A stretch of DNA of 64,000 bases from Gammaproteobacteria bacterium (GCA_965277625.1 OZ255827.1:1717057-1781056), one strand, 5' to 3'; positions 4,257 through 54,437 are shown, numbered from the stretch's first letter. A program made the numbers and translations. The notes: a model not told the origin generated them from the letters alone.

Positions 4257-4547
4257 ATTATTTGACGCTTTTAAATTCATGCGCTCTAACAGTCTTATTG
4301 ATAAGAAGTCATGTCGTTTGCGCAGACATATATCTGTGAAACCACACGTCTATTGCACAGAATTTTTAAATCTCACGGATTGCCTCAGAGACGGTCTATC
4401 ATTGTACCATATAAAGAAATACCTCCAATCACGACAGCTGTTCTCTGAATACCACTTTTTAAAATTATGGACGTGAGTATTTATAAAAATAATGCTTTTA
4501 ATGTTTGATTAAATGAACGTTTTGCACTATTATTTCACGTCTATAGA

Positions 4548-4610: not shown

Positions 4611-5606
4611 ATGAAAAAAATCTCACAACAATTGTTTATTGCTCTAACACTGACGGGGCTATTATTTGCAAAAAATGCTTCAGCACTTGATGAGCTAAAT
4701 ATTGCATATTTCTTAGAATGGCCTTCAGCGAACCAAGTCGCTCAAATTGAAAAAACTTATGATCAGCGCATGGGTCTTAAAGTCAACTGGAAAGCTTTTG
4801 ATAATGGTAACGCCATGACTGCTGCGATGGTTGCTGGTGACATTGACATTGCTTATTCACAAGGTTTTATTCCATTTGTTGTTGCCGTCAGCAAAGGCGT
4901 CGATCTTAAACTCGTCGGTGTGGCCATGACTTATGCTGAAAATGACAACTGTGTTGTTCGTAAAGGAACAGGTATTACCAAAGCAAATGCCAAGCAGTTA
5001 GAAGGCAAAAAAGTTGGTAGCCCTCAAGGTAATGTCACACACTACAAATTGCTTAAAACATTGAAACATCTTGGTGTTGATGCAAAGAAAGTTAAAATTC
5101 TAAGCATGCAGAACAGTGATGTTGCGGCCGCTTTAGCCCGTGGTGATGTCGATATGGCTTGTGGATTCGGTGGTTCTTTGATTCGCATGAAAGAACACGG
5201 ATCGGTACTAATGACCGGTGCAGAACAAGAAGCTATTGGCCTTAAAGTTTTTGACATCGTTTCAGTCACAGGTGATTTCGCCAGAAAAAATCCTGAAATT
5301 GTGACCCAATTTATGCAAATCACTGAAGATGCGAATCTTGCCTACAATCGCTATCCTTCAAGATTTTATAAAACCCTATCTAAAGCCTCAGGAATGGATA
5401 TGGATGGCACAATCAGTACACTGAACAAATTCAAGTTTTTAACACGCTCAGAACAGTTGTCTAAACAGTGGATGAATGGAGGCGTTCAGGACTTCACCAA
5501 AGAAGTCGCTGATTTTTTTGTGACCGAGAAACAATTGCCTAAAGCGCTTTCAAAAGCAGAATACAGCAAATCAATTGATGCGAGTTTCCTAGAGAAAGTT
5601 AAGTAA
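4611..5606 (+). CDS. Periplasmic substrate-binding protein, NitT/TauT ABC family (TauA-like; substrate unproven)
   Basis: Track ORF 4569..5606. The preferred start is ATG 4611, preceded by AAGGAG (4599-4604). The signal peptide is MKKISQQLFIALTLTGLLFAKNASA. The block WKAFDNGNAMTAAMVAGDIDIAYSQG resembles taurine/sulfonate-binding proteins. A matching ATPase and permease follow. Confidence 0.75.
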   Translation: MKKISQQLFIALTLTGLLFAKNASALDELNIAYFLEWPSANQVAQIEKTYDQRMGLKVNWKAFDNGNAMTAAMVAGDIDIAYSQGFIPFVVAVSKGVDLKLVGVAMTYAENDNCVVRKGTGITKANAKQLEGKKVGSPQGNVTHYKLLKTLKHLGVDAKKVKILSMQNSDVAAALARGDVDMACGFGGSLIRMKEHGSVLMTGAEQEAIGLKVFDIVSVTGDFARKNPEIVTQFMQITEDANLAYNRYPSRFYKTLSKASGMDMDGTISTLNKFKFLTRSEQLSKQWMNGGVQDFTKEVADFFVTEKQLPKALSKAEYSKSIDASFLEKVK

Positions 5607-5625
5607 TTTATTGATGAAATCTAAA

Positions 5626-5656
5626 GGGCTACAATACTTTATTGTGGCCCTTTTTT
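5626..5656 (+). terminator. Stem-loop plus T-run between the binding-protein and ATPase genes (partial terminator/attenuator)
   Basis: GGGCTACAAT (5626-5635) pairs with ATTGTGGCCC (5641-5650, one G-U pair). The loop is 5 nt and is followed by TTTTTT (5651-5656). Confidence 0.5.
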
Positions 5657-5666
5657 GGAGGATAAT

Positions 5667-6470
5667 ATGTCGGGTCTAAATGTTAAAAATGTATCGATGG
5701 TTTACGAGCTGCCGCGCGGCGGTTCTGTTGATGCGCTCAAAGATGTTTCATTTGATTTAGAACCAGGTGAGTTGCTCACCATTCTGGGTCCATCCGGGTG
5801 TGGTAAAACCACTCTGCTGAACATCTTGGCTGGGTTTCTTGCACCGACCGCTGGAGACATTGTTTTTGAAGGCAATGAAGTCTTAGGTCCCGATCCTCAA
5901 CGAGGTATGGTATTTCAGCAGGGCGCTCTTTTTGAATGGCTAACTGTTGCTGAAAATGTCGGTTTTGGTCCGAAAATGTCCAACAAGCCGAGCAACGAAA
6001 TTAAAACATTAACCCAACGCTGGTTAGACATCGTTGGATTGTCTGACTTTGGCGAAAAATCCACTTACGAATTATCTGGCGGTATGCAACAAAGGGTTGC
6101 ATTGGCACGGTGTTTGGCCAATGAACCTGATTTAATACTGATGGATGAACCATTGGGTGCATTGGATGCCTTGACCCGAGAAAAAATGCAAGGCCTAATT
6201 TTGAAACTTTGGAAAGATACAGGCAAAACCATTGTACTCATCACACACAGTGTTGAGGAAGCAATGATTTTAGGAAATCGCTTATTTATTATGGCACCAA
6301 GGCCTGGCCGTTTAGAAAAAGAATACAAGCTCCCGTTCGCTGAAATGGGACTTTCTGGCAATACCAGAGACATCAAAAAACAAATAGATTTTGTTGAAAC
6401 ACGTGAAGAAATTTTGACTATGATTTGGGACATGGAAGAAGAAATCATGGGCAGACAAGGAGAAGAGTAA
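5667..6470 (+). CDS. ABC transporter ATP-binding protein (TauB/SsuB-like)
   Basis: Track ORF 5655..6470; ATG 5667 follows GGAGG. It has Walker A GPSGCGKTT, the signature LSGGMQQRVALAR and Walker B LILMDEP. Confidence 0.85.
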   Translation: MSGLNVKNVSMVYELPRGGSVDALKDVSFDLEPGELLTILGPSGCGKTTLLNILAGFLAPTAGDIVFEGNEVLGPDPQRGMVFQQGALFEWLTVAENVGFGPKMSNKPSNEIKTLTQRWLDIVGLSDFGEKSTYELSGGMQQRVALARCLANEPDLILMDEPLGALDALTREKMQGLILKLWKDTGKTIVLITHSVEEAMILGNRLFIMAPRPGRLEKEYKLPFAEMGLSGNTRDIKKQIDFVETREEILTMIWDMEEEIMGRQGEE

Positions 6471-7318
6471 TGAGAGAACTATTGATTAAATTGGGCTTAG
6501 CTGACCCAAATGTAGCAAGAAAAACGGTTACTTTTGGCGATGCATCCGTGGTGGCCGCCAAGGGCGCACGCGGCTGGACTTTCTTGTCCATCGGTGTCCT
6601 ACTCCTCATTTGGTTTTTAGCAGGCGTTTTTGATTGGGTGAGTCCAATCTTCTGGCCTTCAATGGGATCAGTTTGGGATCAATTTACCTTGATTTCAACC
6701 GAAGGTTATCGTAACTTCACACTCTACGAACATATTGGATTCAGCCTCTATAGGGTACTGTTAGGATTCTTCATCGGCTGTCTTGTTGGCATCCCATTGG
6801 GCTTTGCTCTGGCATTATCACGCATCATGAATCGCTTATTTGACCCCATTGTTGAGTTTTTCCGTCCCATGCCCCCATTGGCGCTCATTCCATTGGTTAT
6901 TCTATGGTTGGGGATTGGCGAAGAAGCAAAGGTATTTTTGCTATTCCTTGCCGCTGTTTGGATTATGGCTCTGGCCACCCGTTCAGGTGCATTGGCGACA
7001 AAAATTGCTAAAATCCACGCCGCTTACACCCTCAATGCCACAAAAACTCAGATCTTACTTCGCGTTATTTTACCAAATGCACTACCTGAAATATTTACCG
7101 GCATGCGCGTTTGTATGGGCGTGTGTTGGGGGACAGTGGTTGCTGCCGAACTCGTGGCTGCGGAAGCAGGCGTTGGCATGATGATCATGGTTGCCAGTAA
7201 ATTCTTAGCAACTGATATTGTTGTATTGGGCATTATTCTCATCGGTGTCATTGCTTACGCCATCGATCTTTTTATGCGCTTTCTCGAAGATAAACTCATC
7301 CCTTGGCGTGGAAAATAA
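6470..7318 (+). CDS. ABC transporter permease (TauC/SsuC-like, BPD_transp_1 type)
   Basis: Track ORF 6425..7318. ATG 6470 overlaps the upstream TAA by 1 nt (TAATG). The protein is multi-span hydrophobic and carries an EAA-like loop, ATRSGALATKIAKIHAAYTLNATKTQILLRVILPNALPEI. Confidence 0.8.
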   Translation: MRELLIKLGLADPNVARKTVTFGDASVVAAKGARGWTFLSIGVLLLIWFLAGVFDWVSPIFWPSMGSVWDQFTLISTEGYRNFTLYEHIGFSLYRVLLGFFIGCLVGIPLGFALALSRIMNRLFDPIVEFFRPMPPLALIPLVILWLGIGEEAKVFLLFLAAVWIMALATRSGALATKIAKIHAAYTLNATKTQILLRVILPNALPEIFTGMRVCMGVCWGTVVAAELVAAEAGVGMMIMVASKFLATDIVVLGIILIGVIAYAIDLFMRFLEDKLIPWRGK

Positions 7319-7399
7319 GAGGCTATTTTTACGATTGCACCTTGAAGTCAGTTCTATTGATCGGCGCCTAAGCATTCACTCTGAACACAGGTTCCAATA

Positions 7400-8407
7400 A
7401 TGTCTGTGGTTGAGGACATAGTTGCTCAAGCAAAACAGGGACAAAACGATCGCCTGGCTTTTTCTGAGGGTCAAGATCCTCGAATCATCCAAGCGGCGGT
7501 TCGATTACACCAAGAAAAAATTGCCCAGCCCATCTTGCTTGGCGATCCTGAAACGATCAGAAGCGTGGCATCTGAATGCGCTGTTTCAATCGATGGCATT
7601 CAACTCATAGCGCCTAAATTATCCAAAGACCTCCCTGATTTTACTGATAAACTGCACCAGTTGAGACAACACAAAGGGGTGACGCGATCACAAGCAGAGC
7701 AAATGGTTTTACAACCCCTAGTATTCAGTTATATGTTGTTGGCCACGGGGCAAGTCGATGGTTGCGTCAATGGTGCTGTCCATTCAACGGCCGATGTGGT
7801 CAAAAACGCCTTGCAAATAATTGGTGTTCATTCGAACCACGACATTGTTTCAAGCTTTTTCATCATGGTTTTGAATGAGGATCATGCGCTGGCGCAGAAA
7901 AAATATTTATTCTCAGATTGTGCTCTGATCGTGGATCCATCAGCCAAGGAATTGGCAACCATTGCACAAATGTCGGCCTTAAATGCCTCGCTATTTTTAC
8001 AAGAACAACCTATGGTCGCCATGTTGTCTTTCTCTACCCAGGGCAGCGCTCAACATCCTTTTGCAACCAAGGTTCAAGAGGCGGTTGCCATTTTGAAAGC
8101 GCGCGTTCCAACGCTTTGTGTTGACGGTGAAATCCAATTTGATGCGGCCATAGTACCTAAAATTGCGCGCGATAAAATGCAAAATACGCAAACTGCTGGA
8201 CGGGCAAATGTTTTGGTTTTCCCCAATTTAGACGCTGGCAATATTGGCTATAAAATTGCGCAACGAATGGGACGTGCCACAGCCATTGGTCCCATACTTC
8301 AGGGGCTGAAAAAACCAGCCAATGATTTGTCTCGCGGTTGTTCTGTAGAAGATGTGTTCTTAGTCAGCGCGGCCACAGTAATCCAAGCTTCTAATCTTGC
8401 CTTATGA
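7400..8407 (+). CDS. pta: Phosphate acetyltransferase, short (PTA_PTB-domain-only) form
   Basis: 335 aa. Blocks typical of Pta: RLAFSEGQDPRIIQAA, GQVDGCVNGAVHSTADV, FSDCALIVDPSAKELA, NVLVFPNLDAGNIGYKIAQR and ANDLSRGCSVEDV. Confidence 0.85.
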   Translation: MSVVEDIVAQAKQGQNDRLAFSEGQDPRIIQAAVRLHQEKIAQPILLGDPETIRSVASECAVSIDGIQLIAPKLSKDLPDFTDKLHQLRQHKGVTRSQAEQMVLQPLVFSYMLLATGQVDGCVNGAVHSTADVVKNALQIIGVHSNHDIVSSFFIMVLNEDHALAQKKYLFSDCALIVDPSAKELATIAQMSALNASLFLQEQPMVAMLSFSTQGSAQHPFATKVQEAVAILKARVPTLCVDGEIQFDAAIVPKIARDKMQNTQTAGRANVLVFPNLDAGNIGYKIAQRMGRATAIGPILQGLKKPANDLSRGCSVEDVFLVSAATVIQASNLAL

Positions 8408-9378
8408 TGAACGACGATATTGCCAACAAAATAATCTCTATCAAAGACCTATTTAGTTTTGAATCCGACCTCAAGGTTCGGGGATTCGATGCGCCAAACG
8501 AATACGTCCCAGAAATCAACCCCAATTATCATTTTGATAAAACCACAACCTTGTCAATCTTAGCCGGATTCAGCCACAATCAAAGAGTATTGGTTCAGGG
8601 ATTACACGGCACTGGAAAATCATCACACATAGAACAGGTCGCGGCGCGATTAAATTGGCCCTGTATTCGAGTCAACCTTGACGGCAATATCAGCCGTCTT
8701 GATTTGATTGGCAAAGATACTTTAAAAATTCAAGCTGGGAAACAAGTGACTCAATTTGAATTGGGCATTGTTCCTTGGGCATTGCAGCGACCAATCGCTT
8801 TGGTGTTTGACGAATACGACGCAGGCCGACCCGAAGTGATGTTTATCATCCAAAGGCTGTTGGAGCAAGAAGGCAAATTCACTTTGCTTGACCAAAATAA
8901 GACCATTAAACAACATCCGAATTTTCGGCTTTTTGCCACAGCCAATACGCTTGGCTTGGGCAATATCCACAATCTCTATCACGGCACGCATCTTCTAAAT
9001 CATGCTCAATTGGACCGTTGGAATATCGTCGCTTCTTTGAATTTTTTATCGCCAACTGATGAGGCTAAAATCATCACGGCTCACGTTCCTGAACTGTCGG
9101 CCAAAAACCACACTGAAACCCTTAACGGCATGATTGCATTGGCAAATTTCACAAGAGACAGCCTCAAAATGGGCGATTTATCCAATTTAATGTCTCCGAG
9201 AACGCTCATATCTTGGGCGCAAAATTTTTTAATATTCAAAGATTTACAATTTGCTTTTCGCTTATCTTTTCTCAACAAATGTGATGAATCCGAGCGTGCG
9301 CTCATCGCTGAGTTATATCAGAGAGTATTTGGGCAAGAATTAGAAGAATCGCTCATACATTTGAACTCTGATGAATGA
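8404..9378 (+). CDS. cobS: CobS-like AAA+ ATPase (aerobic cobaltochelatase small-subunit family)
   Basis: 324 aa; the start overlaps the pta stop (ATGA). Walker A is GLHGTGKSS and Walker B is LVFDEYD. Long blocks match CobS as I remember it: TTLSILAGFSHNQRVLVQGLHGTGKSSHIEQVAARLNWPCIRVNLD, FRLFATANT, YHGT..LNHAQLDRWNIV. Confidence 0.8.
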   Translation: MMNDDIANKIISIKDLFSFESDLKVRGFDAPNEYVPEINPNYHFDKTTTLSILAGFSHNQRVLVQGLHGTGKSSHIEQVAARLNWPCIRVNLDGNISRLDLIGKDTLKIQAGKQVTQFELGIVPWALQRPIALVFDEYDAGRPEVMFIIQRLLEQEGKFTLLDQNKTIKQHPNFRLFATANTLGLGNIHNLYHGTHLLNHAQLDRWNIVASLNFLSPTDEAKIITAHVPELSAKNHTETLNGMIALANFTRDSLKMGDLSNLMSPRTLISWAQNFLIFKDLQFAFRLSFLNKCDESERALIAELYQRVFGQELEESLIHLNSDE

Positions 9379-11029
9379 AGGCGTGGTCAATCTGCTTCAC
9401 GGTGCCACAATCCGTGCGCTGAGCAATCAATCCGCACTGGCCGTTTACGGCTCTGATGTGTATTTCCACCATCAAAAACAAATGGCACCCTGCCATTTAC
9501 GTTTTGATGCATCTTTTGAGAGTAGTAATAGACTGAAAAGAGGCAAGTTTGATGCTATGGCACAAAGGAAGCGTTATTCAGACCCAATGCTGCATGCTCA
9601 ATTACAACCCGAAGAGCCCATTGCGCGCCTGATTTTCGATGCCTTAGAACAATTGAGAACCGAAGCCCTGTATTCGAAAGCGCACAAAGGTTTAAAAGCC
9701 AACCTAAGGCATAATTTCCATCATTGGTCTGTGCACCCATCCACCGCTAAATTGTTTGATGACCAAGTTGGCGTGTTGCTGTTTACAGTCATACAAATCA
9801 TTTGGTCTCGCTTAAACGGGCACTCGGTTTTCACCGATGTAGAAGAGATTGTTGAGGTCACGCGTGCGGGCATTGCCCCTTTGATTGGTCATGCACTGAA
9901 GTGCCTGAATAAACAAACCAGAGATCAAATGAAATTTGCCGAACATGCGCTTGAAATCGCCCACATCATCAATGATTTAGTCCAGCAGGAGCAGGTCAGT
10001 AAAAATGAAAACAAAAAAGTGCCGACTGCACTCAATTTTTGGTTTGACGATGAACAAGCTTCTGAATTCTTAGATGCCTTAACGACTCAGTCGTCGAAAA
10101 CCCAAGCTAAGAATGCCAACCATTATCAGATTTTCACCACCGACTTTGACATTGAAACAGACATTACCTCAATGGTGCGCCCTGAGGCTTTGATAAAATT
10201 CAGAAAACAGCTCAGCGATTTTCAACAATTGAACCCCATAAATACCATGTGGTTAAGCAAACAATTACGAGATATTTTTCAAGTACACCCTGAACCTTAT
10301 TTGCAATCAGGTCATACTGCAGGTTATGTGGACGGTGCAAAATTAAATCAAGTTGTATTCTCACCCCTGCAACAAGATGTTTTTAAGTACCCAGAAAATC
10401 AACTCATAACCCAAGCACATCTTTGCCTGCTCGTTGATTGTTCAGGGTCAATCAAAGCACATCGCACCTGGATTGCCAGTTGGATTGACTACTTTATTCA
10501 AGCGGCAGAAGCTGCGGGTATAAAAACCGAAGTTTTAGGCTTTACAACCACAACATGGCAAGGCGGCAGAGTTCGAGAAGCGTGGCAAAAATCTGGATCA
10601 CCGCCCAATCCTGGCAGATTAAACGAACTATGTCACATTTGTTTTAAGTCAGAACACACCCCTTGGCGCAAGGCAAAGAAAGCACTGGCCGGTTTGCTCA
10701 AAGCCGACCTGTATAAAGAAAGCATCGATGGAGAGAGCATTGAATGGGCTTGTAAACGCGCACTCACAAAAGCAACCAAACCCCATTTGTTGATCATTTC
10801 TGATCAATGTCCTATGGATTCCTTTACCCTGTCGCATAATCCAGCCAACCTCTTAACCAACCATATTATTGAAGTTTTGAACCGTTATCAAAATCAGCTA
10901 AATATTTGTGGCATTGGTGTCGGTGAAGCGCTTCCTGAATACTATAATCGGCAGTTGACTTACGAAGATACAACCAACTTAAACAATCGCCACTATAAAC
11001 AACTCCTTAACCAACTGATAAGCAGATAA
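9371..11029 (+). CDS. cobT: CobT-like protein with C-terminal VWA-type domain
   Basis: 552 aa, overlapping cobS by 8 nt. The N-terminus (RGKFDAMAQRKRYSDPMLHAQLQPEEPIARLIFDALEQLRTEAL) follows the CobT N-domain pattern. The C-terminal LCLLVDCSGSI... is a MIDAS-like DxSxS motif of VWA domains. Confidence 0.7.
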   Translation: MNEGVVNLLHGATIRALSNQSALAVYGSDVYFHHQKQMAPCHLRFDASFESSNRLKRGKFDAMAQRKRYSDPMLHAQLQPEEPIARLIFDALEQLRTEALYSKAHKGLKANLRHNFHHWSVHPSTAKLFDDQVGVLLFTVIQIIWSRLNGHSVFTDVEEIVEVTRAGIAPLIGHALKCLNKQTRDQMKFAEHALEIAHIINDLVQQEQVSKNENKKVPTALNFWFDDEQASEFLDALTTQSSKTQAKNANHYQIFTTDFDIETDITSMVRPEALIKFRKQLSDFQQLNPINTMWLSKQLRDIFQVHPEPYLQSGHTAGYVDGAKLNQVVFSPLQQDVFKYPENQLITQAHLCLLVDCSGSIKAHRTWIASWIDYFIQAAEAAGIKTEVLGFTTTTWQGGRVREAWQKSGSPPNPGRLNELCHICFKSEHTPWRKAKKALAGLLKADLYKESIDGESIEWACKRALTKATKPHLLIISDQCPMDSFTLSHNPANLLTNHIIEVLNRYQNQLNICGIGVGEALPEYYNRQLTYEDTTNLNNRHYKQLLNQLISR

Positions 11030-11818
11030 ATGGACTGGATCCCTCAAGAATTTTTTGATGTTACGCTCATAAAAGCCCTAATCACCGGTATTATTATTGC
11101 TTTCTTAATCAATTTGACTGGCGTTGGTGGGGGTATTATCATCATTCCAGTGCTCACTTCTGTTTTTGGATTACCCGTCTCTATTGCCATTGGAACGGCC
11201 AGCATTTATTCAACCATTACCAAGGTTTTAACATGTGGCAATCACATTAATCGAGGCAATGTTCATTTCAAACACTGTTTTTCTGTTCTGAAAATCACAC
11301 TCCCCACCGTTGTAATCAGTGCCATTGCTGTCAATTACGCTTTGAAAGTCTCGCCCCAAATCAATCAAATCGTGCAGGAGATCTTAACCTATCTGGTATT
11401 TAGCATTATGATTTTGTCATGTTGGCTGATTTACAGACAAATCAAACCTGTGGAAAGAACGTATTTGACTAAAACCAAAAGATGGTTGGCTTGTGTGATC
11501 GTCGGAATTATTATGGGTGCGACTGGCATTGGCGGTGGTGTTTTACTCATCCCATTATTGTTATCCATCAATGAAGATTCAATGAAACAGGTCGTGGGCA
11601 ATTCCATTCTTATCGCATTGGTGTTATCCGCGGCAACAGCATTCATTTATTCTGGCGGTGGACAAACTGATTTTAATATTTTGGCCGCTATGCTCATCGG
11701 ATCGATCATTGCCGTCATTCCTTCGGGAAGACTGGGTCAAAAACTATCAAATCAAACATTAAGCTACCTTTCAATTACTCTGATTCTGTGCTCGGGGATA
11801 TTGATGCTCTCTACGTAA
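11030..11818 (+). CDS. TauE/SafE (DUF81) family anion exporter, putative sulfite/sulfonate exporter
   Basis: 262 aa with about 8 hydrophobic spans. It has the duplicated glycine motifs of the family: LTGVGGGIIIIPVL and ATGIGGGVLLIPLL. The ATG abuts the cobT TAA. Confidence 0.75.
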   Translation: MDWIPQEFFDVTLIKALITGIIIAFLINLTGVGGGIIIIPVLTSVFGLPVSIAIGTASIYSTITKVLTCGNHINRGNVHFKHCFSVLKITLPTVVISAIAVNYALKVSPQINQIVQEILTYLVFSIMILSCWLIYRQIKPVERTYLTKTKRWLACVIVGIIMGATGIGGGVLLIPLLLSINEDSMKQVVGNSILIALVLSAATAFIYSGGGQTDFNILAAMLIGSIIAVIPSGRLGQKLSNQTLSYLSITLILCSGILMLST

Positions 11819-29808: not shown

Positions 29809-30435
29809 TCAGGTTTTATTCAATCCTTGACGGATTAACCAATCAACCAAATATTCGGCCACTTTATCTTTTGCCATTGGCTCTAACGGCGTCTGAGTGC
29901 TTTTTGTTATGATGGTTAGAGCGTTCTGTTCTGCGCCCATATATTTCACATCGTTTGCAACCATCACATCGACTTGTTTCTTGAGTCGCTTCTGTTCTGC
30001 ATGCCAGAGCAATTGTTCTGATTCGGCGGCAAATCCAACTGTAAACACATGCGGATAACGCTGCGCAACATCCGATAGGATGTCTGGTGCCAGGTCAAAC
30101 TGTAGCTGTAGGCCCAAATGTTTTTTAAGCTTCTGCGTCGATTCAACGGGAATGAAATCTGATACGGCGGCACACGCCACAAAACAATTGGGTTGAACTT
30201 CATCTATGGTTTGCAAAACACTGCGGTGCATGTCTCGACTGCTTTTGGCAAAAGTGCCGTGACAGCCCTTGGGCAATCCCACCTCAGAATAGGCGTGTAC
30301 CACCCAAACTTCACACTGTTTGTCGATAAAGGCCTGCGCTAACGCCATGCCCATCCGACCACTGCTTTGGTTTGAAATATAGCGGACAGGGTCAATGATC
30401 TCGCGTGTTGCGCCAACCGTTAACAGGACTTTCAC
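29809..30435 (-). CDS. coaB: Phosphopantothenate-cysteine ligase (CoaB domain as a separate ORF)
   Basis: 208 aa with a GTG start. (M)KVLLTVGATREIIDPVRYISNQSSGRMG matches the start of the CoaB half of Dfp/CoaBC. It makes a GTGA overlap with the upstream coaC stop. Confidence 0.75.
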   Translation of the reverse strand: MKVLLTVGATREIIDPVRYISNQSSGRMGMALAQAFIDKQCEVWVVHAYSEVGLPKGCHGTFAKSSRDMHRSVLQTIDEVQPNCFVACAAVSDFIPVESTQKLKKHLGLQLQFDLAPDILSDVAQRYPHVFTVGFAAESEQLLWHAEQKRLKKQVDVMVANDVKYMGAEQNALTIITKSTQTPLEPMAKDKVAEYLVDWLIRQGLNKT

Positions 30436-30956
30436 AAGGGCAGAGCCAAGATGTTGTCAAACAATGTTTGCGCCTCTAACATGCGACCCGAGCCGTGTTC
30501 GCCACACGCTTGATCGCCAGTGGCTGGTCCCCAAATCTCAACCCTATCTTGCTCAAGTTGTTGCAGATTTCTTTGGGTTGCTGGGTGTTGGTACATGGCG
30601 ACATTCATCGCCGGTGATATAGCGATGGGAACACGGGCGGCCAATAAACAATTACTTAACAAATCATCGGCCAGGCCATGGGTCATTTTGCCAATAATAT
30701 TGGCCGTTGCTGGTGCAACCAATATAAAATTTGCCCAGCGACTGAGTTCAATGTGCGCCATGCCTTCATCGGCTTGCCAAAGGTTCTCATAGACGCCTTC
30801 AGCGCCTAATGATCTAAAGCTCAGTGGGGTCACAAACTGCTGCGCCCCTTGACTCATGACCACTTTCACCGAATATTGCGCTTTGCTCAACAATCGAACC
30901 AAGGCCAAACTTTTATAAACGGCAACACTGCCCGTTACACCCAAAAGAATATTCAC
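30432..30956 (-). CDS. coaC: Phosphopantothenoylcysteine decarboxylase flavoprotein (CoaC domain as a separate ORF)
   Basis: 174 aa with a GTG start. NILLGVTGSVAVYKS...VAPATANIIGKMTHGLADDLL...PAMN is the flavoprotein (CoaC) half of Dfp. It makes a GTGA overlap with the upstream ORF. Confidence 0.75.
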   Translation of the reverse strand: MNILLGVTGSVAVYKSLALVRLLSKAQYSVKVVMSQGAQQFVTPLSFRSLGAEGVYENLWQADEGMAHIELSRWANFILVAPATANIIGKMTHGLADDLLSNCLLAARVPIAISPAMNVAMYQHPATQRNLQQLEQDRVEIWGPATGDQACGEHGSGRMLEAQTLFDNILALPL

Positions 30957-50960: not shown

Positions 50961-51707
50961 CTATGAGCTGATTAAAATGTCTTCATCATCTATTTGATCT
51001 GCTGATTCACCAGCATTTGTTCTGGAAATATGACTTTCTTTGACCAAGATTTGGTGACCGATTCTTTTAAGCGTTTTCCAAGCAGAGGTTTCAATGCTAA
51101 GCCCATGGCTTAGGCTATGAACGAGGGTTTGTTGATGCTGCTGATGATTCTGTTGTTGTTCAATATTTTCAACGCCAAGACTGTCATCCTTGGTGGCGAT
51201 TTTAATGAAACTCGTTGCAGAAGGTTGAGGCGGCACAGTGTATGACCATTCTGGATGGGCATATTGGGGGTTCAATAGGGCAACCATCACCCGTCCAGTA
51301 CGTGCATCAATGGTTTCAAAATGCACTGGTCTTACGGCTTTTTTTAACAACTCTGGCAACAACAAAATCCCGTCATCAACCCGATCAAGCACCACAGTGC
51401 CCTCTGGTTCATCTTCTAAATGTTCAGTGATCATCCCACTACAAACCGCCAAATGATGAAGACAGGTTGAATGATTAAAATCCAATACCAAGTGATTAGA
51501 ATTTGATTGCGATAAAGTCAACGAATTCTGCCAATTTTGACTAGGGTGGCAGTTGTCAATAAAATGATGCAATGCTTGAAAACCGATGGATTCCAACATT
51601 GTAATCGACTGGGCAATGGATTCACAAACCCCCATGGGCAAACCGAGTCCCTCAGAAGCCTTGTACAGCTTCATCTCCAACTCATTTAAGGAAATTGTTG
51701 TCCTCAT
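50961..51707 (-). CDS. DUF3726-like protein (unknown function)
   Basis: The track ORF extends to 51719 (TTG), but ATG 51707 gives MRTTISLNELEMKLYKASEGLGLPMGVCESIAQSITMLES. The C-terminus is ...GLSIETSAWKTLKRIGHQILVKESHISRTNAGES. Both ends resemble the DUF3726 pattern as I remember it: SLNELE..A.GaGl.wG at the N-terminus and W..L....VP.se.SR..GAG at the C-terminus. There is a Gln/His-rich linker. Confidence 0.45.
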   Translation of the reverse strand: MRTTISLNELEMKLYKASEGLGLPMGVCESIAQSITMLESIGFQALHHFIDNCHPSQNWQNSLTLSQSNSNHLVLDFNHSTCLHHLAVCSGMITEHLEDEPEGTVVLDRVDDGILLLPELLKKAVRPVHFETIDARTGRVMVALLNPQYAHPEWSYTVPPQPSATSFIKIATKDDSLGVENIEQQQNHQQHQQTLVHSLSHGLSIETSAWKTLKRIGHQILVKESHISRTNAGESADQIDDEDILISS

Positions 51708-51728
51708 TGACAATGCCAAATGAAATAT

Positions 51729-53396
51729 TTAATCATTGTATAAAAACCAATCATCTGGCGGTGCTAAGTAACCTTGATCATTCAGCAAGGGGGCGCCCTG
51801 AAACAAGGTAATACGCAACCATTTATCTGATTTTGGGTCAAATTTGCCCGCACCAAAAAAAGAAAGTTTTAAGCGCAAAATATCAATGGGATAGAAATTT
51901 TTGTCTAAGACGTTGCTGCGGATTTCGCCGTAGGGATTTTGTGCATATTGCCACACCCTTCTAACAATACCGCTGTATTGGGGTTGATCAAATAAAAATC
52001 GACTGACCCGCATGTTGAGATCAGATGATTGTGCTTTTACTAAGGCTTCATAGAGCTGATTAACGGCTCTGCCTATGTCTATTTTCATCTCTTGATTCGG
52101 CTGTGGTTTTTCAACAAACCGATCGCCTAAACGGGGTTCCTCTTTATCTTCGGCGACGTACCAATATTTAAAAATGGTATTTTCATCAGTCAGGTCCAAG
52201 CGAATGGCCCAGTGATAATTCTGTTCAATTTCACTGATCAGATCGCTGATGGTCGCGTGGCTGTGTCCATCGAGTTTGAGCTTTACCGGCTGGAAATTGG
52301 CATATTTGTCAGCAATGTCTGGTGTGACCTCTAACAAGACATTCAGGAGCAATTCTTTGACTTCTTGACAGAACGCTTGGGTATTGATCTCCTGCCACAG
52401 AGGCATCCAACTCTGCGCTTGGAGCACCGATGTTAAAGACATTTGTTTGATTTTGTCCAAATCGAGCAGCAATTGTTTATTTTTAGCCGTTTGCATGGGG
52501 TCTGGTACGCTTATGGCCCCAAAATACTGCTGCGCTCTGTCAAAGTAGTGCTGCACGGTATTTATGGTGTCTTTGGTGGGCTTCGATTGATGAATCACTT
52601 CAAACAATGCTTGCTCGCGTTGACTCACCCACGAATGAATGATTTGCGGGTGTTTGATGAGATATGGCCCCATACCCAAACCTGTAGAATTGCCTACGCC
52701 AATGGAACGTTTGATCGAGTCGGACAGTGGCACAGCATTTTGACCGCCTCGCTTAGTGGCCATGTGATCCACCCATTCAAATGAAAACCAACGAACCATA
52801 TAAACCATCAACATTTGCACACGAAATTGATCGGACAAAGCCGTCCCTTGCAAACGTTGATAATCTGCCATACCGAACTTTCCATTGCCATAGACCGCCG
52901 TTGTTCGGACAAAATAACTGCATTTGCGAATTTCATCCATTTCTGGCTGATCGCCTCGACTCAAGCAATCAATCACATAAGAAAATAGACGCATGCTTTT
53001 ATTGGCGCGCGACAGACAAATCACATTCGGGTTATAGCGCCCTTTTTCCTGCTTTGGGACATTTTTGGACAGCATTTCGATGTTGTGTTGATCAATTTCA
53101 CCCAACCAAATACAGCATGTCACATCCCACTTTTCCGCAATCACACGATCATTGCGTTCTTCATCTTCAATGAATTGAGCGAAAAATACCGCATGGCAAA
53201 TCAAGCCCGCCAACTCAATGCGATAAACAGCCGTACCATAGCCATCATCATCAAGATCAAATCTGGCACGTTTTATTAACCAAGACTGATTCAGCATGGT
53301 TCGGACCAAGCTGCGCGAAAAACTGAGGTAAGAACTATGAAATGCGCCCAACTTTGGCGCGCTCATAATTTCTTCTGGACAACGCAGATGATTCAT
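51729..53396 (-). CDS. Hypothetical 555-aa protein, no recognisable family
   Basis: The ORF is clean. GAGG lies 8 nt upstream of ATG 53396. It sits 36 nt after the upstream gene and 21 nt before the downstream gene. By eye there is no signal peptide, TM segment, nucleotide-binding motif or metal motif. Confidence 0.6.
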   Translation of the reverse strand: MNHLRCPEEIMSAPKLGAFHSSYLSFSRSLVRTMLNQSWLIKRARFDLDDDGYGTAVYRIELAGLICHAVFFAQFIEDEERNDRVIAEKWDVTCCIWLGEIDQHNIEMLSKNVPKQEKGRYNPNVICLSRANKSMRLFSYVIDCLSRGDQPEMDEIRKCSYFVRTTAVYGNGKFGMADYQRLQGTALSDQFRVQMLMVYMVRWFSFEWVDHMATKRGGQNAVPLSDSIKRSIGVGNSTGLGMGPYLIKHPQIIHSWVSQREQALFEVIHQSKPTKDTINTVQHYFDRAQQYFGAISVPDPMQTAKNKQLLLDLDKIKQMSLTSVLQAQSWMPLWQEINTQAFCQEVKELLLNVLLEVTPDIADKYANFQPVKLKLDGHSHATISDLISEIEQNYHWAIRLDLTDENTIFKYWYVAEDKEEPRLGDRFVEKPQPNQEMKIDIGRAVNQLYEALVKAQSSDLNMRVSRFLFDQPQYSGIVRRVWQYAQNPYGEIRSNVLDKNFYPIDILRLKLSFFGAGKFDPKSDKWLRITLFQGAPLLNDQGYLAPPDDWFLYND

Positions 53397-53432
53397 GATT
53401 GCAACCTCATAGTTAGGACTGTCATTAGAACG

Positions 53433-54437
53433 TCAGCCGTTAAGCCCACTCTGAGGAGTCAATGATTGTGCAAAATACCGCATCCAGTTTCCACCCATGA
53501 TTTTGGCGGAGTCTTCTGCCCCAATACCATGATCAACCATGGCCGATTGCAAATGCGCAAAATCAGCCACTCTGCTAAACCATTTAGGCGGCGCTGGCCA
53601 GCCACTCTGATCTTTTGAACCTTCACCGTAGTCCATCTCTTTGGTCCAGTGGCCATTCCGCATATACTCAACAACCGCAACTTCTCTGCCTTGACAAATA
53701 TCTGTGCCAATGGCGATGGTGTCAACACCGATTAAATCGATCAATCTTTTGATCTCATCCATGAGGTCACTGAGTTGACAATCTGAGGTGTTTTTTAGAT
53801 GGAATGGATAAAAACTGAGACCGAAGATGCCGCCAGATTCTGCTAACAACTTCAACACATCATCGCCCTTATTTCTTAGAGCTGGTTGGAAATGCAAACT
53901 TTGTGCGTGACTAATGGTAATAGGTCTTTGTGAGGCTTCAATCGCCTCAATGGTCGCTTGTCTTGAGCTGTGAGACATATCGATGATCATACCCACACGA
54001 TTCATTTCCTTGACCGCTGCGCGCCCGAACCGACTGAGACCTATGTCGGCTTGTTCATAGCAACCGCCGCACAAATGCGACTGGTTATTGTAAGACAATT
54101 GCATCACACCAACGTTCAAGCGGCGATATAACTCAATCATATCGATGTTATTTTCAATCGATGAACAGTTTTGAAAACCAAATACAACCCCTATCCGAGC
54201 ATCATCCAACTTTGGCTCAAAACCATCCACAGACGTTGCAGGATATAACAAATCTGCATGGGCATCAAATAAGCGAAACCAATCACCCAACAGCGTCATA
54301 GTTTCATGAATATTTTCCCAAAATACCACAGTGACGTGGATGATGTCTAAACCCGCATCGCGCGCTTCTTCAAAATAAGCTCGAGTGGGTAATGCATACT
54401 GCAACCCATCAACATAGACCGACTGTTTCTTTACCAT
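53433..54437 (-). CDS. Peptidase M19 (renal/membrane dipeptidase) family protein, atypical N-terminal motifs
   Basis: 334 aa. M19-like blocks: GVMQLSYNNQSHLCGGCYE, MNRVGMIIDMSHSS, PITISHAQS and IAIGTDICQG. The usual N-terminal xDGHNDxP reads VDGLQYAL. Confidence 0.7.
   Translation of the reverse strand: MVKKQSVYVDGLQYALPTRAYFEEARDAGLDIIHVTVVFWENIHETMTLLGDWFRLFDAHADLLYPATSVDGFEPKLDDARIGVVFGFQNCSSIENNIDMIELYRRLNVGVMQLSYNNQSHLCGGCYEQADIGLSRFGRAAVKEMNRVGMIIDMSHSSRQATIEAIEASQRPITISHAQSLHFQPALRNKGDDVLKLLAESGGIFGLSFYPFHLKNTSDCQLSDLMDEIKRLIDLIGVDTIAIGTDICQGREVAVVEYMRNGHWTKEMDYGEGSKDQSGWPAPPKWFSRVADFAHLQSAMVDHGIGAEDSAKIMGGNWMRYFAQSLTPQSGLNG

Follow-up and report, generated by a model that had tools for sequence, protein, structure and literature searches.

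Known motor-adaptor pairs and sulfonate gene clusters

The closest described counterpart of the genes examined here is the motor of the cobaltochelatase CobNST (PDB: 9ujv and 9uka; 10.64898/2026.07.21.739949), formed by the AAA+ protein CobS and by CobT, which combines an N-terminal domain with a C-terminal von Willebrand factor A (VWA) domain carrying a MIDAS (metal ion-dependent adhesion site). In the cryo-electron microscopy complex of CobSTN, CobN touches CobT alone and not CobS, and the preprint describing it mentions no other role for the pair (10.64898/2026.07.21.739949). We analyzed a 64,000-nucleotide stretch of DNA from a gammaproteobacterium (GCA_965277625.1 OZ255827.1:1717057-1781056), hereafter the window, in which a cobS/cobT-like gene pair lies within a cluster of seven genes at positions 4611-11818, between genes for a phosphate acetyltransferase (Pta) and a TauE-family membrane protein and downstream of genes for a TauABC-like importer. 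The pair shares with CobNST the AAA+ CobS, the two-part CobT, and the gene order cobS then cobT, and the window CobS shares about 60% identity with its alphaproteobacterial counterparts. In contrast, the window CobT is 24-28% identical to the alphaproteobacterial (alpha) type, both window proteins score below the equivalog cut-offs, and their neighborhood contains no CobN, no cob gene, and no B12 riboswitch, with the pair standing instead in or near xsc/pta sulfonate clusters.

A second set of comparable systems comprises NorQ/NorD, CbbQ/CbbO, and CoxD/CoxE, which supply the proposed working analogy, ATP-driven remodeling or cofactor handling (PMC9976466, PMC13036017, PMC4660213, PMC3471820). 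In these systems, as in the window, a AAA+ gene is followed directly by a VWA/MIDAS gene, with an 8-nt overlap in our case. Their genes also stand beside a specific client; in relatives, the pair is often close to xsc, whereas in the window itself xsc is distant. The window CobS is, however, only distantly similar to the MoxR-type ATPases (CbbQ, 29 bits, E = 6e-6; NorQ, 25 bits, E = 1e-4), and its AAA_3 score of 21.9 bits, under the Pfam cut-off of 27, leaves it outside the MoxR/CbbQ/NorQ group. CobS is placed in AAA+ clade 6, unlike the clade-7 type of BchI/ChlI. A further difference lies in the kind of client, which here would probably be a thiamine-diphosphate enzyme instead of a metalloenzyme or Rubisco.

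Taurine and sulfoacetate clusters (tauABC, tauXY or tpa, xsc, pta, tauE, and sauSTU) have reportedly been described by the Cook laboratory in Cupriavidus necator, Paracoccus denitrificans, and other bacteria. The window resembles them in its TauABC-like importer, Pta, and TauE-family exporter, with Xsc and SauS encoded in the same genome, and many of the loci that we surveyed have the order xsc-pta-tauE. In contrast to them, the pathway is here divided between two loci far apart, and a cobS/cobT-like pair, of which we found no mention in published descriptions of such clusters, sits inside the operon. A taurine-deaminating enzyme was also not found (tblastn in the window; the best 120 matches for TauY; Tpa not searched genome-wide).

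We interpret the seven genes as one arm of a two-locus C2-sulfonate pathway, in which the CobS/CobT-like pair would act as an ATP-driven accessory of the Xsc step rather than as part of a cobaltochelatase, with Xsc itself as its most likely client. We assign this reading a probability of roughly 0.55. The remodeling or maturation role that it gives to the pair draws on gene neighborhood and on analogy with other AAA+/VWA pairs. The seven genes, with the basis of each assignment in parentheses, are as follows.

4611-5606, + strand: TauA-like substrate-binding protein, periplasmic, NitT/TauT family; signal-peptide-like sequence at the N terminus (Pfam/NCBIfam)
5667-6470, + strand: TauB-like ABC ATPase (Pfam/NCBIfam)
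6470-7318, + strand: TauC-like ABC permease (NCBIfam)
7400-8407, + strand: phosphate acetyltransferase Pta, short form (TIGR00651)
8404-9378, + strand: CobS-like AAA+ ATPase, the motor (TIGR01650, motifs, PDB match)
9371-11029, + strand: CobT-like adaptor combining the CobT N-terminal domain with a VWA domain at the C terminus (Pfam, TIGR01651, MIDAS)
11030-11818, + strand: TauE/SafE-family membrane protein, putative sulfite or sulfonate exporter (PF01925)

Linkage of cobS and cobT to xsc

The evidence that carries this reading comes from gene neighborhoods. A CobS-seeded sample comprised 80 loci from species-representative genomes, 37 beta- or gammaproteobacterial and 43 alphaproteobacterial or other, and genes were counted as linked if they lay within 10 kb. 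By this measure xsc is linked to the pair in 27 of the 37 beta/gamma loci and in none of the 43 others, and its identity is secure (TIGR03457, 1043-1066 bits, cut-off 676). Other neighbors in the 37 loci are IclR (18), tauXY (11), pta (8), ptb-like (7), tauE (6), and tauABC (3). The ptb-like neighbor is a butyryltransferase-like phosphotransacylase from a family different from that of pta, with Xsc being the constant partner. Seeding from Xsc gave the reciprocal picture, with both cobS and cobT within 10 kb in 60 of 79 loci; many of the loci lacking the pair are short contigs or second xsc copies in genomes where the other copy is linked. The original interpretation is thus partly supported: the pair goes with C2-sulfonate and not with cobalamin genes, as had been proposed, and its tight linkage to xsc extends to beta- and gammaproteobacteria at large.

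The pair and the xsc/sulfonate genes are combined in at least four arrangements, across many genera. cobT-cobS is divergent from xsc in Vibrio, Cupriavidus, Thauera, Azoarcus, and Sulfuritalea, and convergent with xsc-pta(-tauE) in Pandoraea, Paraburkholderia, Burkholderia, and Advenella. Co-directional xsc-(ptb)-cobS-cobT occurs in an uncultured Pseudomonadales genome and others, iclR-cobS-cobT stands beside xsc in Variovorax-type loci, and tauABC-tauXY-pta-cobS-cobT is the arrangement of locus L081, described below. Annotated and Pfam-labeled loci agree; in Caballeronia sp. NK8, for example, the proteins of the pair adjoining xsc-pta are named "AAA family ATPase" and "cobalt chelatase" by NCBI. 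By chance, the share of a 2-6 Mb genome in which two given genes come to lie in one 20-kb span is well under 1%. A linkage this rare by chance that nevertheless recurs in varied gene orders strongly indicates a functional connection, and simple inherited synteny is insufficient to explain it, because the arrangements differ and span many genera.

Several observations on these loci stand apart from the linkage itself. An IclR gene lies directly upstream of cobS, often abutting it, in the same orientation and opposite to xsc, in L011 (9150-10001) and likewise in L013, L014, L017, L024, L032, L035, L037, L048, L051, and L053, which suggests that iclR, cobS, and cobT are transcribed as one unit in loci of the Comamonadaceae type. 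Two contigs labeled as Actinobacteria, L215 (Rhodococcus sp. NPDC057529) and L051 (Paeniglutamicibacter sp. MACA_103), carry a proteobacterial-type xsc, 76-82% identical, beside cobS and cobT, reflecting either horizontal transfer or assembly contamination.

In streamlined marine genomes, namely Pelagibacteraceae (L060, L077, and L080) and SAR86 (L025 and L046), cobS and cobT occur with no xsc within 10 kb; SAR11 is not known to make B12. A gene for a ThiG-like TIM-barrel protein (PF05690) lies within 10 kb of xsc in 11 loci (L246, 5067-5876; L004, L014, L034, L037, L173, L176, L196, L202, L224, and L231). It had been considered as support for cofactor repair and was set aside, as it matches none of the NCBIfam thiazole-synthase models.

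Sequence features of the CobS/CobT-like pair

Both proteins of the window pair retain the motifs of their families. The CobS-like protein matches AAA_5 (43.5 bits) and has an intact Walker A motif (GLHGTGKS, at residue 66) and an intact Walker B motif (LVFDEYD); its match to the solved CobS (PDB: 9ujv) covers residues 8-318 at 416 bits, and CobS_N is matched just below threshold (20.6 bits, cut-off 22.2). The CobT-like protein contains PF11775 (CobT_C, 126 bits) and PF06213 (CobT, 84 bits), matches the solved CobT at 211 bits, and has an intact MIDAS, DCSGS at residue 356, which aligns with the DxSxS of all compared CobT proteins. The closest solved structures of the pair are thus the cobaltochelatase CobS and CobT chains, with CbbQ and NorQ as weak matches.

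Against the equivalog models, the CobS-like protein scores 442.9 bits on TIGR01650, below the cut-off of 558.55 bits, and the CobT-like protein scores 241.7 bits on TIGR01651, far below the cut-off of 759.05 bits and with an alignment mainly over its C-terminal half. The xsc-linked relatives also fall under these cut-offs (CobS, 441.6 and 486.5 bits; CobT, 187-252 bits). Identity is distributed unequally over the two proteins: CobS is 58-66% identical to CobS of every clade, and CobT is 32-38% identical to xsc-linked CobT and resembles the alpha type either at the lower identity given above or in the VWA domain alone. This combination of a conserved motor and a diverged adaptor fits a change of client, because in the solved complex CobN contacts only CobT and never CobS.

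In a neighbor-joining tree of CobS, the alphaproteobacterial proteins form a separate clade with no xsc linkage, apart from the CobS-seeded beta/gamma proteins, which are mostly xsc-linked. The window CobS groups with that of the xsc-linked L081 and next with SAR86. Because the tree includes loci selected through Xsc, in which xsc is present by design, the unbiased linkage figure remains 27 of 37.

An alpha-type pair was also observed in a different setting. In L243 (Pandoraea oxalativorans plasmid pPO70-1, NZ_CP011518.2, 432377-435214), cobS and cobT lie within a urease cluster, with ureG overlapping the start of cobS; this CobS passes TIGR01650 (584.8 bits) and this CobT nearly passes TIGR01651 (716 bits). 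Its position hints that the CobS/CobT motor may have been recruited there to urease maturation, a second hint of recruitment to enzymes besides CobN.

A second sulfonate locus carrying xsc

The window itself contains no xsc and no taurine-deaminating gene, as had been noted from the sequence (tblastn gave no hit for xsc or tauXY, and there is no tpa). The original prediction placed the desulfonating enzyme elsewhere in the genome, and this is where we found it: the Xsc protein P0133 and the protein P0122, identical to the window CobS, are each recorded on a single contig of 2,106,115 bp, so that the genome measures about 2.1 Mb. Three Xsc proteins, all 86% identical to the Xsc of L081, are encoded on single contigs of 2,106,115, 2,064,107, and 2,083,442 bp, lengths equal to those of the contigs with the CobS of this lineage.

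Both loci are directly visible in a closed sibling genome (ctg127079_101x_c, ERZ26858995), where some 0.65 Mb around the circle separates the tau-pta-cobST-tauE cluster (1.80-1.82 Mb) from xsc (0.39-0.41 Mb). The sibling Xsc scores 1046 bits on TIGR03457 (cut-off 676). On one flank, its gene is accompanied by iclR, tctABC, a gene for the acylating sulfoacetaldehyde dehydrogenase SauS (NF047625, 641 bits, cut-off 600), and a gene for an AMP-forming CoA ligase. The other flank is directly occupied by a DmsABC-type molybdoenzyme of 975, 246, and 300 residues (L248, 10001-16366), which none of the NCBIfam models names and which resembles the cytoplasmic sulfite dehydrogenase SoeABC. SoeA-like matches near xsc are also present in L081 and several Burkholderiaceae loci.

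The sulfoacetaldehyde pathway is therefore complete at the level of the genome and split over two loci. With SauS encoded next to xsc, sulfoacetate at least is indicated as a substrate. No TauY of this lineage appeared among the best 120 matches, a weak negative to which no genome-wide search for Tpa was added.

Gene junctions and transcription signals

The open reading frame (ORF) list and direct reading of the sequence both give seven + strand coding sequences at 4611-11818. The same-strand layout and every junction claimed for it earlier are present in the sequence. The start of tauC overlaps the stop of tauB in TAATG (6468-6472), and an 81-nt gap (7319-7399) separates tauC from pta. The start of cobS overlaps the stop of pta in ATGA (8404-8407), cobS and cobT share the 8-nt overlap ATGAATGA (9371-9378), and the start of tauE abuts the stop of cobT in TAAATG (11027-11032). 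Translational coupling of cobS, cobT, and tauE fits this arrangement, because direct reading revealed no obvious ribosome-binding sequence of their own.

Two candidate transcription signals accompany the cluster.

4505-4533, + strand: sigma-70-like promoter candidate upstream of tauA, TTGATT-17-TATTAT (weak consensus match)
5623-5656, + strand: 14-bp perfect hairpin followed by U6, terminator- or attenuator-like, in the 60-nt tauA-tauB spacer

The hairpin has a minimum free energy of -19.8 kcal/mol (z = -4.64), and none of 200 shuffled sequences folds equally well. It is likely an attenuating terminator of a type frequent 3' of binding-protein genes, and the seven genes may therefore be unevenly expressed or not form one unbroken transcript. 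Of the seven-gene operon proposed at the outset, all coupled junctions thus stand, but a single even transcript may be broken by this element, which had gone unmentioned. A consensus scan of the region for promoters and terminators returned sites no more numerous than in shuffled sequence, and such sites, apart from the separately folded hairpin, were not used as evidence.

Importer, Pta, and exporter

Profile searches bear out the initial family assignments for the cluster (TauABC-like, Pta, CobS/CobT-like, and TauE). For the three importer proteins, taurine models rank first and all three scores remain under the equivalog cut-offs. The TauA-like protein matches Pfam NMT1 at 68 bits and, as its best NCBIfam model, TIGR01729 (taurine-binding) at 174 bits (cut-off 304); the TauB-like protein matches ABC_tran at 120 bits and NF008421 (taurine ATP-binding subunit) at 260 bits (cut-off 357); and the TauC-like protein best matches the TauC model NF007545 at 226 bits (cut-off 342). 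The binding protein falls on the TauA/SsuA side, in agreement with the sulfonate type proposed for it, and shares 75% identity with its L081 counterpart, a member of a tauABC-tauXY operon. Taurine as the imported substrate is nevertheless uncertain, with TauA under its equivalog cut-off, no TauY of this lineage among the best 120 matches, and the SauS gene at the xsc locus pointing to sulfoacetate instead.

Pta exceeds its equivalog cut-off (TIGR00651, 358 bits versus 311) and is 46-52% identical to the products of pta genes 3' of xsc in Burkholderiales and Vibrio loci. The TauE-family protein is a clear member of its family (PF01925, 118 bits versus a cut-off of 32.6) and belongs to a divergent subfamily; phmmer found no link between it and the TauE proteins encoded 3' of pta at 44 further loci, and it was consequently abandoned as a marker for tracing the cluster.

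Close relatives and selection

The adjacency of these genes, predicted to recur in relatives, is seen in L081, L082, and L247. The seven-gene arrangement is identical in L082, a 98%-identical contig, and in L247, a closed circular genome of 2.06 Mb. Compared with L082, all seven genes have ratios of nonsynonymous to synonymous substitution of 0-0.27, with 99 synonymous and 19 nonsynonymous differences and no stop codons, and are thus under purifying selection in this strain. Synonymous divergence from L082 varies about 30-fold within the cluster (tauA, 0.005; cobT, 0.011; tauC, 0.147; tauE, 0.125), which suggests recombination between strains.

The more distant locus L081, in a 1.92-Mb genome with a CobS 66% identical to that of the window, contains tauABC, tauXY (a small SnoaL-like gene and a DAO-type gene), pta, cobS, and cobT, with the same ATGA overlap between pta and cobS. 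Its divergent side carries eamA, a genuine xsc with 1043 bits on TIGR03457, and a molybdoenzyme gene (1-2859). The window cluster looks like this arrangement minus tauXY and xsc and plus a TauE gene.

Proposed role of the pair and alternative explanations

In the pathway as we propose it, the TauABC-like importer would take up the substrate, Xsc from the second locus would convert sulfoacetaldehyde to acetyl phosphate and sulfite, Pta would convert acetyl phosphate to acetyl-CoA, and the TauE-family protein would export sulfite or a sulfonate. A CobS hexamer would form an ATP-driven ring that powers the diverged CobT adaptor, which could dock by the MIDAS face of its VWA domain and its N-terminal domain on a client, most probably the thiamine-diphosphate enzyme Xsc. 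Once docked, the pair might assemble, activate, or reactivate Xsc, by analogy with CbbQ/CbbO for Rubisco, NorQ/NorD for nitric oxide reductase, and also CoxD/CoxE.

As a more specific and tentative version of this role, the pair could be an ATP-dependent activase or repair chaperone for Xsc that, for example, reopens the enzyme after turnover-linked inactivation with its product sulfite. Sulfite is chemically aggressive toward thiamine. This would make turnover-linked inactivation of Xsc plausible, and it offers one speculative reason why a thiamine-diphosphate enzyme should need such help.

Several points weigh against assigning the pair to Xsc. In the window, the pair is not beside xsc but is coupled to pta and tauE, and its client could differ. 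In ten of the 37 beta/gamma loci (Marinobacterium, SAR86, and Oceanisphaera among them), xsc is missing from the 10 kb on either side of the pair. Three of these ten (L006, L014, and L046) are on contigs that end less than 5 kb from cobS on at least one side. The window CobS is still about 60% identical to genuine CobS, and a gene for CobN may be present in this or other genomes. Xsc purified by the Cook laboratory was reportedly active with no such factor reported, and we found no published observation that ties the pair to Xsc. A search for literature linking xsc with cobS/cobT, a chelatase, a von Willebrand domain, or a AAA+ activase likewise found none; most subscription-journal papers and about 1.7 million PubMed Central articles were outside this search.

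Among the alternatives, the one that survives best is that the pair serves another component of the pathway, be it maturation of a SoeABC-like molybdoenzyme, assembly of TauE, Pta, or the taurine dehydrogenase TauXY. The translational coupling of the window pair to pta and tauE, and not to xsc, would be explained in this way. A SoeA-like molybdoenzyme is also encoded next to xsc in several Burkholderiaceae loci as well as in L081 and L248, and in L023 it is tauXY, not xsc, that adjoins cobS. Moreover, molybdoenzymes are matured by AAA+/VWA pairs of the CoxD/CoxE type (PMC3471820). We nonetheless regard a different client as unlikely, since all these partners are far less constant than xsc across the 37 loci (tauXY in 11, pta in 8 and ptb-like genes in 7, tauE in 6, against 27 for xsc). 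The phosphotransacylase beside the pair comes from two different families while Xsc stays the same, and at many of the loci that carry the pair a molybdoenzyme is absent within 10 kb.

It is quite improbable that the two proteins are genuine small and medium subunits of an aerobic cobaltochelatase, with CobN encoded elsewhere and the position in a sulfonate cluster meaningless. This explanation draws on the matches to the solved CobS (416 bits) and CobT (211 bits), the Pfam CobT and CobT_C domains, and the sub-threshold CobS_N match (20.6 versus 22.2 bits). Against it, both proteins fall below the equivalog cut-offs, with CobT at 242 versus 759 bits, whereas the alpha-type pair of the Pandoraea plasmid reaches 585 and 716 bits. 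The adjacency to xsc, repeated in rearranged form over dozens of genera and far above chance, is not explained at all, and neither cob genes nor a B12 riboswitch are found near the pair. The genome is also just about 2.1 Mb in size, and Pseudomonas (Pseudomonas aeruginosa) uses ChlI/ChlD-type subunits. The Vibrio carriers of the pair are not known as aerobic B12 producers.

Finally, it is hardly credible that the window cluster is the decaying remnant of a taurine operon, with tauXY and xsc lost and cobST lacking a current role, since the signs of loss (relative to L081, tauXY missing from the 81-nt gap between tauC and pta and xsc no longer divergent from tauA, and no TauY of this lineage among the best 120 matches) are outweighed by seven intact ORFs under purifying selection relative to L082 (99 synonymous and 19 nonsynonymous differences), an identical arrangement in two or more further assemblies, including a closed genome, and an xsc kept elsewhere in the genome.

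The attachment of a CobS/CobT-type motor-adaptor pair to a pathway other than B12 suggests a helper role that has not been described. CobS and CobT are routinely annotated as vitamin B12 synthesis genes. If this subfamily serves sulfonate degradation, many of the B12 producers predicted from beta- and gammaproteobacterial genomes would be wrongly assigned. The much-studied Xsc pathway, which matters for the turnover of taurine and sulfonates in the sea and the gut, would have an unrecognized component, and the old puzzle of CobS/CobT in organisms lacking CobN would gain an example testable in culturable and genetically tractable hosts such as Cupriavidus, Paraburkholderia, Vibrio, and Pseudomonas. 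Should the pair prove to be an Xsc activase, it would be the first AAA+/VWA remodeler assigned to a thiamine-diphosphate enzyme and the first concrete function of CobS/CobT homologs outside cobalt chelation, and it could help to explain why CobS/CobT occur in bacteria and phages that lack CobN.

Remainder of the window

The rest of the window consists of housekeeping genes. Upstream, the cluster is neighbored by gltB on the minus strand, which runs off the start of the window (seen via L082), and downstream by gspCDEF, icd, argG, his genes, polysaccharide genes, and others. Scanned with Pfam, the remaining large ORFs of the window include no thiamine-diphosphate enzyme, cobN, or cob gene, and Rfam gave no match in the window, a cobalamin riboswitch included.

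Two minor features were recorded among these genes. A 555-residue ORF lacking a Pfam match (51729-53396, minus strand) lies between genes for a DUF3726 protein and an M19 membrane dipeptidase (50961-54437). The halves of CoaBC (Dfp), a protein that is normally fused, are encoded by two minus-strand ORFs that overlap by 4 nt, at 29809-30435 and 30432-30956 (Flavoprotein and DFP domains), representing either a truly split gene or a frameshift.

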